Source: a virus (taxonomy: Duplodnaviria > Heunggongvirae > Uroviricota > Caudoviricetes). From it: a DNA stretch of 4,476 bases. The position numbers and the translations under genes were made by a program. The notes beneath the pieces were generated by a model that had not been told where the DNA came from, ran no database searches, and saw only the letters and a list, made by a program, of their open reading frames with translations. Location of the stretch: positions 1 to 4,476 of the IMG/VR virus record IMGVR_UViG_2778261151_000012, one strand, 5' to 3'. How positions within the stretch are numbered: position 1 is the stretch's first letter; every line of letters begins with the position of its first letter. Of the stretch, positions 1,396 through 4,476 are shown piece after piece.

Positions 1396-1692
1396 TCAGG
1401 TATGATCAAATGAGGATTTGTTACTGTCATTTAGTTGCTTCACTGACATATTCTGCGAACAACATGCCGAACGTCGTAAATATGACCAGTCAATATCAGG
1501 ACGAAGTTCTTCGCACAGAACCTCACCTCTTGTTGCACGTTCAATTGCTGGACATCTCTCGGCAGGCAATTGACGTACCCCTTTGATCCATTGATTTACG
1601 CTTGGAGGTGATACACCTAAAAGCCTAGCCATTGCTGATTGCCCACCGACAACAGCACAAGCTTGCTTGAATGAATAGTTCTCTTTTTTCAT
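1396..1692 (-). CDS. ydaS: Cro-like HTH regulator YdaS, 98 aa
   Basis: Complete ORF MKKENYSFKQACAVVGGQSAMARLLGVSPPSVNQWIKG with a clear helix-turn-helix (QSAMARLLGVSPPSVNQW). GGAG Shine-Dalgarno 8 nt upstream. Divergent from racR across the operator region. Confidence 0.9.
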   Translation of the reverse strand: MKKENYSFKQACAVVGGQSAMARLLGVSPPSVNQWIKGVRQLPAERCPAIERATRGEVLCEELRPDIDWSYLRRSACCSQNMSVKQLNDSNKSSFDHT

Positions 1693-2744: not shown

Positions 2745-2900
2745 ATGCAAAAAATCGACCTCGGCAACAACGAATCCCTGGTGTGCGGCGTGTTCCCCAA
2801 CCAGGATGGAACGTTCACTGCCATGACGTATACCAAAAGCAAAACATTTAAAACCGAAACTGGTGCGCGCCGATGGTTGGAGAAGCACACAGTAAGCTAA
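2745..2900 (+). CDS. ydaF: Small protein YdaF (DUF1391-like), 51 aa
   Basis: ATG 2745, 10 nt after the ydaG stop. Translation MQKIDLGNNESLVCGVFPNQDGTFTAMTYTKSKTFKTETGARRWLEKHTVS, stop TAA 2898-2900. Found by manual translation. Confidence 0.75.
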   Translation: MQKIDLGNNESLVCGVFPNQDGTFTAMTYTKSKTFKTETGARRWLEKHTVS

Positions 2901-3385
2901 CGATTAAAACGTCTACTCCTGCTGTTCCAGAATAACTTCATAAAATGGGAGTATTTTTCGGTGACGAGATAATAAGAACAGTTTGCGCTATCACTCTGAT
3001 GTTGAATGATGCCCTTCCGTTCTAATTTTTTCATAACCGGGTTACGGCAAGGAGAAGTGATAATAAGATTTCCTGTTTTAAGGAAATCTTTAAATACAGC
3101 GATTTCTTTCTCAGATAAACGAAGCAATACTCGTTGCTCTGGTAGTAATGAATAATGCTTTTGAATATGTGCTCGCAATCTTGAGAAGGAAATGGCGACC
3201 ACGAAAGAAAAGGCAAAAACGATAATCTGAAAGAGCCAAGGTATTTCAGTATAAGCATTGAATGCGACAGTAAACTCTTTCGGTATCAGCCAGAGAGTGA
3301 GACCAAAAATGATAATCGTATACATAAGTCTTTCGAGTGGCTCGTTAGCAAAAAGTTTCAACAATGGAGTAAATACATCCAACAT
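2897..3385 (-). CDS. sieB: Superinfection exclusion protein B (membrane protein), 162 aa
   Basis: Translation MLDVFTPLLKLFANEPLERLMYTIIIFGLTLWLIPKEF... with hydrophobic segments. Start chosen at ATG 3385..3383 to give 162 aa, matching recalled SieB. The containing ORF extends in-frame upstream to 3508. Confidence 0.85.
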   Translation of the reverse strand: MLDVFTPLLKLFANEPLERLMYTIIIFGLTLWLIPKEFTVAFNAYTEIPWLFQIIVFAFSFVVAISFSRLRAHIQKHYSLLPEQRVLLRLSEKEIAVFKDFLKTGNLIITSPCRNPVMKKLERKGIIQHQSDSANCSYYLVTEKYSHFMKLFWNSRSRRFNR

Positions 3386-3608
3386 ATCAATAACTCTCAA
3401 CTGTAAGGGTATTGAAATGTTAACACAAGCTCTCGCTGTAGGGGTATAGCCGAGACCACCGAAGCCCGGAGGTGGTGAAATAAAACCGGGCACAACACGA
3501 AGGCGCATTTCCGATATCCATAAAGAGTCGGTCTTGTCTGTTAAATTTAAATGGTGGGAGTGCGCCTCCGGTTGTAAATAACGACATTGCTGTGTGAAGT
3601 ACCAGTTG

Positions 3609-3648
3609 GCGGCATCGGTTTAATTGCTGGCTGATGTCCGCCCTTTTT
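3609..3648 (+). terminator. Terminator-like hairpin followed by T5 on the plus strand
   Basis: GGCGGCATC (3609-3617) pairs with GATGtCCGCC (3634-3643, one bulge) around a 16-nt loop, followed by CTTTTTAA. Confidence 0.3.
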
Positions 3649-3649
3649 A

Positions 3650-3804
3650 AAGTGAATTTTGTGATGCGGTGAATGCGGCTAAGCGCACGCGGCACAGTTA
3701 AAAGTCATGTTAGTCCTTATTGGTTTGGGTGGGAAAGCCGACTGTAATTGTTAACTGGTTAACGTCACCTGGAGGCACCAGGCACCGCATCACAAAATTC
3801 ACTT
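3650..3804. repeat. Perfect 22-bp inverted repeat flanking a 111-bp spacer
   Basis: AAGTGAATTTTGTGATGCGGTG (3650-3671) is the exact reverse complement of CACCGCATCACAAAATTCACTT (3783-3804). Spacer contains GTTAAC-tg-GTTAAC (3750-3763), hairpin CCTGG-aggca-CCAGG (3768-3782) and tandem AGGCACC x2 (3773-3786). Confidence 0.9.
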
Positions 3805-3931
3805 CGGTGATGAAAGGAAAGAGAAAATGTTGAATGTAGCTATTGAAAACCAGAACGGGTGGAATTATAGTGCACCTGCACCTCATAAAACGGGTGCCGG
3901 GATTAGCACCCCGAAAGTTACTCGAGCGCAT

Positions 3932-3954
3932 AACCGCGCTGAAGCGGTTTTTTT
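3932..3954 (+). terminator. Intrinsic-terminator-like hairpin plus T7 tract upstream of the Rha-family gene
   Basis: Stem AACCGC (3932-3937) / GCGGTT (3944-3949), 6-nt loop GCTGAA, run of seven T (3948-3954). Oriented for the plus strand. Confidence 0.35.
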
Positions 3955-4120
3955 ATGCGTAATGCACAGCCACATTCAAATTATGGTGAGGCGTGCGGGG
4001 CAGCCGCAAGGCTGGCCGGGTTCTCGAGTGACCGGTAGTGCTAACCCTGTGCGTCTCACCACCCATGAGATTAGCACCTCTGCTGGTGAGTTAATTAACT
4101 TATCACTTGAGGATGTCATT

Positions 4121-4476
4121 ATGGCTACTACCCTTTCTCACCCTGACGTAACCATCGAAAATGGTCGCGCCGTCACTACTTCTATTTCGATTGCTGAGTT
4201 TTTTGGCAAGCAGCATCACCATGTTGTTCAAAAAATAGAATCCCTCGAATGTTCTGAACTATTTTTAACCAGCAACTTTTCGCGGGTTAAATTCGAACAC
4301 CGCGGCAATTCTTATAACGCCTACCAAATCACCAAAAACGGCTTCGTTTTCCTGGTGATGGGCTTCACGGGCAAAAAAGCCGCCACATTCAAGGAAGCCT
4401 ACATTGCTGAGTTCGACCGCATGGAGGCCGAACTGCGCCAGAATAACACCCCACCTGCTGACAAGATGATTCCGGG
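4121..4476 (+). CDS. Phage regulatory protein Rha family (N-terminal Rha domain); 3' end beyond window
   Basis: ATG 4121 with GAGGA Shine-Dalgarno (4109-4113) 7 nt upstream. Translation MATTLSHPDVTIENGRAVTTSISIAEFFGKQHHHVVQKIESL...YQITKNGFVFLVMGFTGKKAATFKEAYIAEFDRMEAEL matches the Rha-domain signature. Frame is open to the window end. An in-frame upstream ATG at 3827 is an alternative start. Confidence 0.8.
   Translation, partial: MATTLSHPDVTIENGRAVTTSISIAEFFGKQHHHVVQKIESLECSELFLTSNFSRVKFEHRGNSYNAYQITKNGFVFLVMGFTGKKAATFKEAYIAEFDRMEAELRQNNTPPADKMIP

Follow-up and report, generated by a model that had tools for sequence, protein, structure and literature searches.

A probable IsrK/C4-class regulatory RNA leader upstream of the Rha gene in a Rac-like lambdoid prophage

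The stretch at positions 3827-4120, which precedes the Rha gene at the end of the window (the whole 4,476-nt piece of phage DNA that was analysed), is very probably an IsrK/C4-class regulatory RNA leader of the Rha gene in a Rac-like lambdoid prophage and not an extension of the Rha protein. The initial annotation had offered two alternatives for the open frame that runs through it, an N-terminal extension of Rha or an attenuator-type leader. The evidence speaks for a structured regulatory leader with a Rha start at Met-4121 and against the N-terminal extension. The leader part of "attenuator-type leader" thus holds, with a more specific identity: an IsrK/seqA-like RNA plus a C4/CI-type antisense RNA. 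The elements of the locus are as follows.

3827-4120, plus strand: 98-codon open frame, treated by PGAP as the Rha N-terminus and by Pfam as Phage_ASH; judged not to be a protein-coding extension
3843-3871, plus strand: predicted sigma-70-like promoter, TTGAAA, 17-nt spacer, TATAGT (promoter scan, 10/12 matches)
3878-3954, plus strand: IsrK-like small RNA (seqA in P4; holds the a1/b1 boxes of P1) with an intrinsic terminator at its end; Rfam RF01394
3899-3909, plus strand: b1 box GGGATTAGCAC, complementary to b' of C4 (inverted repeat I7; exact direct repeat D2 common to b1 and b2)
3917-3926, plus strand: a1 box GTTACTCGAG, complementary to the a' loop of C4 (inverted repeat I8)
3932-3954, plus strand: Rho-independent terminator AACCGCG-CTGAAG-CGGTT followed by T7 (terminator scan, 3932-3949 plus T run); terminal hairpin of the IsrK model
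3979-4066, plus strand: C4-type antisense RNA (CI RNA in P4, STnc1160 in Gifsy-1); Rfam RF01695
3983-3985, plus strand: AUG conserved at the C4 5' end, corresponding in position to the first start codon of Gifsy-1 orf45, in frame with ATG 4121
4020-4031, plus strand: a' recognition loop of C4, GTTCTCGAGTGA, which fits the a2 and a1 boxes of its own locus
4037-4047, plus strand: b' recognition segment of C4, AGTGCTAACCC (inverted repeat I7 with b1)
4067-4078, plus strand: b2 target box GAGATTAGCACC, containing an exact 10-nt repeat, GATTAGCACC, common to b1
4103-4114, plus strand: a2 target box TCACTTGAGGAT, containing the Rha Shine-Dalgarno sequence GAGGA at 4109-4113
4121-4476, plus strand: 5' part of the Rha-family regulatory gene (PF09669, TIGR02681), which runs off the window

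The first RNA matches RF01394 with 68.5 bits (gathering score 50, E 1.1e-13) over model positions 1-77 of 77, including the T7 terminator, and a weak match to RF03163 (c4-a1b1; 23.8 bits) overlaps it at 3865-3917. The terminator-like hairpin with T7 that had been noticed at 3932-3954 was recovered by the terminator scan and is the predicted 3' end of the short IsrK-like RNA. At the other end, the promoter found by the sequence scan at 3843-3871 ends 7 nt upstream of 3878 and predicts a transcription start near 3878, that is, downstream of ATG 3827. The same promoter geometry is seen in Gifsy-1, where TATATT lies 7 nt upstream of the isrK 5' end, and in the loci L022 and L039 an unrelated promoter, TTGACT/TATATT, stands at an equal distance from the same leader. 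Similarity among the relatives starts at about 3879-3884. The pairing GGGTGC/GCACCC proposed at 3892-3911 exists, but it competes with the IsrK consensus, in which GGGUGC pairs with GCACCU at 3878-3883. ARAGORN found no tRNA or tmRNA in the leader region.

The second RNA matches RF01695 with 78.6 bits (gathering score 45, E about 7e-15) over model positions 1-87 of 87. Folded alone, 3979-4066 adopts the consensus structure, in which a long basal stem encloses two hairpins, with -46.9 kcal/mol (z -4.15); a tRNA-like stem and a 3' ACCACCCA tail can be recognized. The hairpin CAGCC-GCAA-GGCTG described at 4001-4014 is present as hairpin 1 of C4. In 47 C4 homologues, retrieved by a pattern that fixes hairpin 2 and b', RNAalifold predicted 26 pairs, and double changes that compensate each other were seen in 16 of these. 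The proposed pairing CTCACC/GGTGAG at 4055-4090 can form, but it competes with the basal stem of C4, in which the CUCACC 3' strand pairs with GGUGAG 3985-3990. In the predicted fold of the full read-through leader (-104 kcal/mol, z -5.2), b1/a1 are paired with b'/a' and the Shine-Dalgarno site of ATG 4121 lies inside a hairpin. This fold matches the translationally inactive 'structure A' of Gifsy-1, which has been shown experimentally (PMC4825925), and it counts in favor of an RNA leader.

Complementarity between the C4 loop and the a2 box, and its covariation, were shown across loci. Here the a' loop and the a2 box form 12 contiguous pairs, G-U included. The 87 loci contain 47 a' loop variants, each of which fits its own a2 and a1. 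Among the 47 distinct loop sequences, the median a'/a2 pairing is 11 contiguous pairs in cognate versus 6 in non-cognate combinations, and runs of at least 9 pairs occur in 77% of the cognate and 7.5% of the non-cognate combinations. For a'/a1, runs of at least 9 nt are found in 67% of the loci with the cognate box and in 3.3% with non-cognate boxes. Copies of the 10-nt repeat shared by b1 and b2 lie at 3901-3910 and 4069-4078. Judged by eye, b' varies together with b2 among the homologues; the corresponding statistic, the longest contiguous run, is weak (6.9 cognate versus 5.5 non-cognate), since a bulge interrupts this short segment. The a2 box is also sequestered in cis, by a hairpin at 4077-4112.

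We infer the start, termination, RNase P processing and repression at this locus by analogy with the known systems. Transcription from the constitutive promoter at 3843-3871 would begin near 3878, and most transcripts would end at the T7 terminator, yielding an IsrK-like RNA of roughly 77 nt with b1 and a1. Read-through transcripts would contain C4 (3979-4066) with its tRNA-like stem, a' and b', which RNase P may excise, as in P1 and P4. C4 would pair, in trans or in cis, with b2 at 4067-4078 and a2 at 4103-4114; this would cover the GAGGA of ATG 4121 and leave Rha untranslated, and the transcript would likely end prematurely. Having the target's boxes itself, the IsrK-like RNA could titrate C4 or remodel the leader and thereby turn Rha on. 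The putative antirepressor-like Rha would then promote lytic functions. Acting in trans, C4 may confer a sequence-specific secondary immunity against relatives that share the a2/b2 boxes. According to this scenario, the long ORF from ATG 3827 would be a by-product of a stop-poor conserved RNA and at most, from 3983 onward, an orf45-type coupling ORF.

The true start of Rha is most likely ATG 4121. The Rha domain had been placed near Met-4121, and PF09669 indeed covers residues 117-200 of the fused ORF, which corresponds to residue 19 onward when counted from Met-4121. In TIGR02681, the curated full-length Rha model, position 3 aligns with residue 106 of the 279-aa product, 7 residues past Met-4121; the N-terminus of the family is therefore close to Met-99, which is ATG 4121. 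The GAGGA site attributed to this start is found at 4109-4113, 7 nt upstream. From this ATG the Rha product has 181 aa in L001, a locus that is 99% identical. Codon periodicity and synonymous excess begin at the Rha gene. The same leader precedes unrelated genes, each with its ATG at a fixed distance just past a2: Rha here, the ORF6N-domain protein AnrP in Gifsy-1 and an Icd-like protein in P1-like loci. In the annotation of phage 24B, ant likewise begins right after a2.

The isrK-orf45-anrP locus of Gifsy-1 (Hershko-Shalev et al. 2016, PMC4825925) has the same order and spacing: promoter (here a predicted one), 77-nt IsrK with terminator, C4-like element STnc1160, target box on the ribosome-binding site and antirepressor-like gene. 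Rfam isrK and C4 are both found there, orf45 begins with the conserved AUG of the C4 5' end, and the pairing in cis of the middle part of IsrK with the C4 region is predicted here too. The encoded proteins differ, AnrP having an ORF6N domain and Rha a Rha domain with no detectable similarity between them, as does the genomic place, which is the early-left region of a Rac-like prophage adjoining sieB here and downstream of antQ in Gifsy-1. The immI operon of P1/P7, with the order a1/b1, c4 RNA, a2/b2, icd, ant (Citron and Schuster; RF01695, RF03163), shares the C4 fold, the two recognition segments, which are complementary to one box pair upstream and another downstream, and a downstream box over the ribosome-binding site of the first gene. 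In P1 the c4 RNA represses Ant synthesis (PMC8546580), and RNase P processing of C4 is documented for P1/P7. P1/P7 have icd, whereas none is present here, so that the target box lies directly on the Rha ribosome-binding site. In the P1-like loci sampled, an Icd-like ORF of 75-82 aa follows a2 in a different phase. Fusion of the C4-AUG frame to ant in these loci was considered and rejected; in three of the four loci the frame terminates close to where the Icd-like ORF does and amounts to icd read out of frame. Unlike in P1/P7, the upstream boxes are packaged here as a terminated small RNA (IsrK). The P4 arrangement seqA, CI RNA, seqC shares both Rfam families in unchanged order (isrK 8615-8692 and C4 8420-8507, minus strand) and an open frame over the RNA that is the same and is matched by Phage_ASH. 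The two RNAs lie 108 nt apart in P4 and 25 nt apart in the present locus, and the documented output of the P4 system is premature transcription termination of the replication operon, not control of Rha. Structurally, IsrK and C4 are homologous to seqA and CI RNA of P4, and systems of this type occur in lambdoid prophages (PMC3632133). The element is thus of a known kind; as its biology is understood from P1, P4 and Gifsy-1, the locus adds a further member and not a principle.

The open frame itself is as it had been described. No stop interrupts the 216 codons read from ATG 3827 past ATG 4121 up to the window end, and a Shine-Dalgarno-like site, AAAGGAAAGAGAAA, lies just upstream of ATG 3827. 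The stop-free stretch that contains this ATG begins already at 3755, and the other two frames have 6 and 13 stops within 3827-4120. A recount also agrees on the codons CTG (0), CGA (2) and AGG (1) in the leader. In dinucleotide-preserving shuffles, an open stretch of 98 codons in a given frame occurred in 0.7%, of 81 codons in 2.9% and of 46 codons in 12.6%. The first of these values makes the 98-codon frame more than a trivial chance event. That the leader lies inside a large conserved gene, as ORFs reaching >1 kb upstream in L012, L037 and L077 and 'peptidase' annotations might imply, was rejected; no family hit was obtained for the upstream parts of these ORFs, which are shadow ORFs on the strand opposite a TumE-like toxin gene and an HTH gene.

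Codon periodicity is absent from the leader (entropy by codon position 0.710/0.716/0.725 versus 1.158/1.078/1.388 in Rha), and so is a synonymous excess (fraction in the three frames 0.334/0.309/0.226 versus 0.487/0.209/0.201 in Rha); since constraint at the RNA level could mask a synonymous signal, these negative tests are not fully decisive. Frame-disrupting indels or stops in homologues had been named beforehand as the outcome favoring a leader, and the homologues do show frame-disrupting indels, in-frame stops and all three phases, with no synonymous-site drift. Counted from the C4 AUG, the gene AUG lies at 16 different distances, which fall into mod-3 classes of 48, 10 and 21 loci. Compared with L032, L040 has a 1-nt deletion that disrupts the upstream frame only. 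In L022 and L039, whose leader is 99% identical, unrelated sequence that carries an in-frame TGA takes the place of the ATG 3827 region. The suggestion that the open frame is coincidental holds in part. The section 3827-3982 has no coding support, and the section from AUG 3983 onward is the equivalent of the translated Gifsy-1 orf45. Among relatives, stops are unusually scarce in this frame.

Among the alternatives, the one that survives best takes the leader RNA to be partly translated as well, from AUG 3983, so that ribosomes are delivered to ATG 4121 or a Rha isoform with 46 additional residues is made. Selection would then keep the frame open but not the peptide sequence. We regard this as unlikely, with a precedent in its favor: Gifsy-1 orf45, which starts at the homologous AUG (Gifsy-1 nt 107, which is position 34210 of L124, in AAUUAUGGUGGGG), is a translated ORF in translational coupling with the downstream gene, and anrP translation requires it (PMC4825925). 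The C4 AUG precedes the gene AUG by 138 nt here and by 134 nt in Gifsy-1. The AUGA coupling of the Gifsy-1 type, with the stop of a short ORF over the gene start, is not found here, where the frame is fused to Rha with no separate stop. Among 79 non-redundant loci, about 59 have an ORF from the C4 AUG that extends to the gene start, by in-frame fusion, AUGA overlap or a longer overlap; arguing against this possibility are about 19 loci in which it stops 23-87 nt short of the gene. Furthermore, AUG 3983 has no Shine-Dalgarno site and is buried in the basal stem of C4. Stop counts are in favor: the spacer 4079-4102 is stop-free in all 20 distinct variants versus 5 and 15 stops in the other frames, and 18 of 18 sequences are stop-free over 3983-4120, where column resampling led to an expectation of 40%. 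These counts come from related sequences and are therefore not independent; the resampling and the distinct-word counts are suggestive of selected openness but confounded by shared ancestry. Frame 0 is just as open upstream of AUG 3983, where translation is not expected, and in P1-like leaders, in which icd is out of phase.

A stronger form of the same idea, that in the Rac-like subfamily the C4 gene doubles as coding sequence, with a stop-less orf45-type ORF fused to Rha and starting at AUG 3983 or ATG 3827, appears quite improbable. If true, the frame would be kept open by selection while the peptide was left unconstrained, and an N-terminally extended Rha, made from AUG 3983, or from ATG 3827 on antiterminated early-left read-through, would escape the masking of the 4121 ribosome-binding site by C4.

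A true coding extension, with ATG 3827 as the gene start, a 279-aa 'Ash-Rha' product of two domains and hairpins that are incidental, is very unlikely. It would account for the improbability of the frame in the shuffles, for the Shine-Dalgarno-like site at ATG 3827 and for the lack of a stop in any in-register relative, and it draws on the match of PF10554 (Phage_ASH) to the translated leader (57.9 bits, gathering score 26, residues 14-95), on several PHROG families that cover the translated leader and on the long form annotated by PGAP. Against it, the first 17 codons from ATG 3827 hold the leader's own predicted promoter upstream of the homology block, and they are the part replaced in L022 and L039. 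The upstream in-frame starts shift in position among lineages, several without a Shine-Dalgarno site, and an intrinsic terminator lies inside the ORF. The missing codon periodicity and synonymous excess, the varying phase to the downstream gene and the annotated start of phage 24B ant also argue against an extension. The same Pfam model matches the obsolete P4 cI ORF lying over the P4 CI RNA, which derives from an untranslated primary transcript (PMC4825925). Because of this match PF10554 probably models a translated RNA leader, and several PHROG families appear to have been built on it as well. As a real domain PF10554 lacks support on two further points: protein-level purifying selection was not found in the matched frame (RNA constraint could blunt this test), and neither the reading frame nor the start codon is conserved among the homologous loci. 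Translated Gifsy-1 orf45 has no PF10554 match. The least tenable alternative is a cis-acting attenuator in which a leader peptide from ATG 3827 controls the 3932-3954 terminator without a trans-acting RNA; a terminator inside an ORF with a Shine-Dalgarno site and the alternative pairings of GGGUGC with GCACCU or GCACCC would suit it, but the predicted transcription start falls downstream of ATG 3827, which moreover is not conserved, both RNA families matched by the element act in trans, and such an attenuator would leave no role for the covariation seen, locus by locus, between C4 loop and Shine-Dalgarno box.

Counted against an RNA leader were the frame being open more often than by chance, with 0 stops in 27 distinct in-register relatives versus 13-23 in the other frames, the treatment of the stretch as protein by PGAP, PF10554 and several PHROG families, and ATG 3827, whose plausible Shine-Dalgarno site could allow translation on read-through transcripts from upstream. 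In the literature PF10554 has been used as a marker for P4 epsilon and as a domain of Bro-network proteins. The proposal that Ash is P4 epsilon, a real antirepressor, and the 98 aa a real domain was rejected; epsilon matches PF25738 and has no similarity to the leader peptide, and PF10554 matches the obsolete P4 cI ORF over the CI RNA. The practical value of recognizing the regulatory RNA leader lies in annotation: Rha regains its true start, a sequence-specific immunity determinant comes to light, and the constant position of 'Ash' on the N-terminal side of unrelated antirepressor-type domains is explained. In the three E. coli chromosome records inspected, the PGAP start of Rha is about 98 codons too early; the long form is given in 3/3 and the RNA gene is annotated in none. 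The element was matched in 4679 of 5426 complete E. coli genomes.

The open frame of 98 codons ahead of the Rha gene (3827-4120) is not a protein extension; it belongs to a well-known kind of regulatory RNA system, here an uncharacterised member. The initial annotation had left the choice between a coding extension and a structured leader. Two Rfam RNA families above threshold and the lack of a coding signature favour the leader; start, phase and codon statistics all argue against the extension. The RNA elements are:

3843-3871: sigma-70-like promoter, predicted (TTGAAA, 17-nt spacer, TATAGT)
3878-3954: IsrK (RF01394), full-length Rfam match, 68.5 bits (gathering score 50)
3979-4066: C4 antisense RNA (RF01695), full-length Rfam match, 78.6 bits (gathering score 45)

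The predicted promoter ends 7 nt before the 5' end of IsrK, the 5' half of which is also covered by a weaker c4-a1b1 match in the Rfam scan. On its 3' side the IsrK model closes with the T7 terminator at 3932-3954, which had been noticed from the sequence alone, as had the GNRA hairpin at 4001-4014; both are present. The hairpins proposed at 3892-3911 and 4055-4090 are alternative pairings, rivals of the IsrK and C4 consensus structures. Support for the C4 fold comes from 47 homologues, in which 16 of the 26 predicted pairs show compensatory changes. IsrK and C4 are likewise present in Salmonella Gifsy-1, between antQ and anrP. IsrK has already been equated with seqA, and C4 with CI (PMC3632133; PMC4825925), and lambdoid prophages have been noted as carriers of "IsrK-C4 immunity systems" (PMC3632133).

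The target boxes surround C4. Boxes b1 and b2 form an exact 10-nt direct repeat, GATTAGCACC, identified with a repeat finder at 3901-3910 and 4069-4078. The C4 segment b' (4038-4047) is complementary to b1, and the C4 loop a' (4020-4031) to a1 (3917-3926). Loop a' also forms 12 contiguous pairs with a2 (4103-4114, TCACTTGAGGAT), which includes the Shine-Dalgarno site of ATG 4121; the GAGGA noted for this ATG was confirmed, 7 nt upstream of it. Inspection of sequences from 119 viral contigs carrying the conserved C4 core reveals that from locus to locus the loop varies in concert with the box immediately 5' of the downstream ATG. For 52 distinct loop/b' combinations with 47 distinct loops, the median number of contiguous loop/a2 pairs was 11 in cognate and 6 in non-cognate combinations; at least 9 pairs were formed by 77% of the cognate and 7.5% of the non-cognate combinations (67% and 3.3%, respectively, for loop/a1).

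For the whole read-through leader (3878-4130) the predicted fold has -104 kcal/mol (z -5.2), with b1/a1 paired in cis with b'/a' and with a hairpin (4077-4112) that sequesters the Shine-Dalgarno site of ATG 4121. Its Gifsy-1 counterpart is the translationally inactive "structure A", shown by mutagenesis (PMC4825925). By analogy with P1, P4 and Gifsy-1, constitutive transcription would begin near 3878 and termination at 3954 would yield a short IsrK-like RNA, while read-through would produce a precursor from which RNase P frees C4. Binding of C4 to b2/a2 would block Rha translation and cause premature termination. The IsrK-like RNA, which shares the target boxes, may compete for C4 or remodel the leader and thereby turn on Rha, presumably an antirepressor-like lytic regulator. 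Sequence-specific secondary immunity would be conferred by the pair of variable loop and box. A 12-nt inverted repeat, TTGAATGTAGCT (3830-3841) and AGCCACATTCAA (3968-3979), 92% complementary, joins the stretch just after ATG 3827 to the spacer that separates the IsrK terminator from C4, and could pair only on transcripts entering from upstream.

Several independent lines say that the frame 3827-4120 as a whole is non-coding. ATG 3827 lies outside the conserved unit, since homology among relatives starts at about 3879-3884. Relatives contradict the coding reading of the initial annotation: in two loci (L022 and L039) the leader is 99% identical from 3884 on and is preceded by an unrelated segment with its own -35/-10 at equal distance and an in-frame TGA, and in L040, compared with L032, one base is missing from the stretch that separates the Shine-Dalgarno site from the ATG, a deletion that breaks only the upstream frame. 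In other lineages the position of the first in-frame ATG differs and the Shine-Dalgarno site is often missing. Codons 6-15 of the frame from ATG 3827 are the predicted promoter and codons 36-43 the intrinsic terminator.

The codon-periodicity and synonymous-site analyses suggested initially gave no sign of protein-level selection in the leader, in contrast to the Rha gene. Across 18 in-register homologues (97% identity or less), no codon periodicity was found in the leader (mean column entropy 0.710/0.716/0.725 by codon position, against 1.158/1.078/1.388 in the Rha gene). Nor was there a synonymous excess in the leader among single-difference codons (fractions 0.334, 0.309 and 0.226 in the three frames); the Rha gene gave 0.487, 0.209 and 0.201, and as much as 13:0 in one close pair. 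The distance from the conserved AUG at the C4 5' end to that of the regulated gene takes 16 values, with 48, 10 and 21 loci in the mod-3 classes; the phase of the leader relative to the regulated gene is not conserved family-wide. The leader is common to unrelated genes, each with its ATG just past a2: Rha here, AnrP (ORF6N) in Gifsy-1 and Icd-like proteins of 75-82 aa in P1-like loci. The Rha domain starts 19 residues past Met-4121, in keeping with its initial placement, and the curated full-length Rha model TIGR02681 starts at Met-4121. The corrected Rha start is most likely 4121.

As described initially, a purine-rich Shine-Dalgarno-like site precedes ATG 3827, and no in-frame stop follows it as far as the window end; the codon counts were also confirmed. 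The open frame is non-trivial, and a 98-codon stop-free run in the given frame occurred in 0.7% of dinucleotide-preserving shuffles. The conserved AUG 3983 matches, by position, the first start codon of Gifsy-1 orf45 (isrK transcript nt 107, position 34210 of the Gifsy-1 sequence L124). The 45 codons of orf45 are translated, overlap anrP through AUGA and are required for anrP translation, and orf45 is conserved as nucleotide sequence, not as peptide (PMC4825925). In Gifsy-1, 134 nt lie between the orf45 AUG and anrP, whereas in the window the distance from AUG 3983 to ATG 4121 is 138 nt; the orf45-equivalent ORF is therefore fused in frame to Rha. Among 27 distinct in-register leaders, which share ancestry, none has a stop in the frame of ATG 3827, against 13-23 in the other frames; stops occur in 0 of 20 variants of the variable spacer 4079-4102, against 5 and 15 in the other frames. 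Under a column-resampling null, just ~40% of sequences would be stop-free over 3983-4120. Because the frame is likewise open upstream of AUG 3983, in P4, and in P1-like leaders with icd out of phase, and because the sequences are related, an inherited stop-poor RNA and a selected coupling ORF cannot be separated here.

Long upstream ORF extensions in some loci were rejected as genes; they are shadow ORFs opposite real genes. In locus L077 (6139-6826, minus strand), a TumE-like toxin gene and an HTH (HVO_A0114-like) gene directly adjoin the leader on its upstream side, on the opposite strand, and a shadow ORF of 277 codons, on the same strand as the leader, runs into the leader frame. Tandem IsrK/C4 leader modules, each ahead of a Rha-type gene or gene fragment, occur in L037 (two C4 matches), L012 (2304-4139) and L031 (3057-4853), in places merged so that one stop-free frame extends over 540-610 codons, which suggests recombination between leader modules.

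The homology search proposed for the 98-aa translation gave a match to Pfam PF10554 "Phage_ASH" (57.9 bits), a family that is itself probably the translated leader. Ash has been described as P4 epsilon, with PF10554 as the epsilon profile, in a survey of P4-like satellites (PMC8628076), and has been listed elsewhere among domains of unknown function, in fusion with Rha (PMC8951638). The identity with epsilon was rejected: epsilon matches PF25738 and has no similarity to the window peptide. In P4 (L123) the two are:

8168-8584, minus strand: old cI ORF, PF10554
7888-8175, minus strand: epsilon, PF25738

PF10554 matches residues 22-85 of the obsolete P4 "cI gene product" ORF, and these coincide exactly with CI RNA plus the target downstream of it; the primary transcript of P4 has been described as untranslated (PMC4825925). 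Most probably, the "Ash domain" is the IsrK/C4 leader translated in its usually open frame, and the epsilon profile of the survey may actually have detected the CI RNA region. A Pfam family and routine genome annotation apparently translate an RNA gene. The translated leader is contained in PHROG families 995, 821, 6928, 3960 and 29966. Its annotation varies: it has been absorbed into the gene by PGAP and in mEp460 and ST64B, whereas in phage 24B ant begins right past a2.

The window comes from an E. coli prophage, lambdoid and Rac-like, and represents its immunity and early-left region, with the following genes:

1396-1692, minus strand: YdaS/Cro-like gene
1816-2292: repressor-like HTH gene
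2600-2900: YdfB-like and DUF1391 (YdaF/YdfA-like) small genes
2897-3508 as listed, minus strand: sieB, ending at 2897
after 4120: Rha-family gene, running off the window

E. coli O121 (L001) has a 99% identical locus, with homologues of ydaE, recE and gam after the Rha gene; in related copies, kilR and recE lie downstream. Of 5426 complete E. coli genomes, 4679 contain sequence resembling 3400-4476. A TTAGGCNNNGCCTAA-like palindrome occurs five times at 1722-1787 and 2388-2427, against a chance expectation of 0.17, with three copies on one side of the repressor-like gene and two on the other; these are probably the immunity-switch operators. The SieB ORF as listed mechanically (2897-3508, minus strand) has 203 aa; the true start is probably internal, since the SieB domain begins at residue 62 and PGAP assigns 162 aa to sieB in the relative L002. 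At 3593-3643 (plus strand) a DicF-like hairpin is followed by a T run (terminator scan match 3611-3638; Rfam DicF 28.6 bits, under the gathering score of 48). A dicB pseudogene fragment immediately downstream of its counterpart in L002 suggests a remnant of a dicF-dicB module. Adjoining ATG 3827 on its upstream side, a 22-nt perfect inverted repeat (3650-3671/3783-3804, plus strand) bounds a structure of ~155 nt (-63 kcal/mol, z -4.4) with a partial Rfam STnc100 match of 34.1 bits, under the gathering score of 47.
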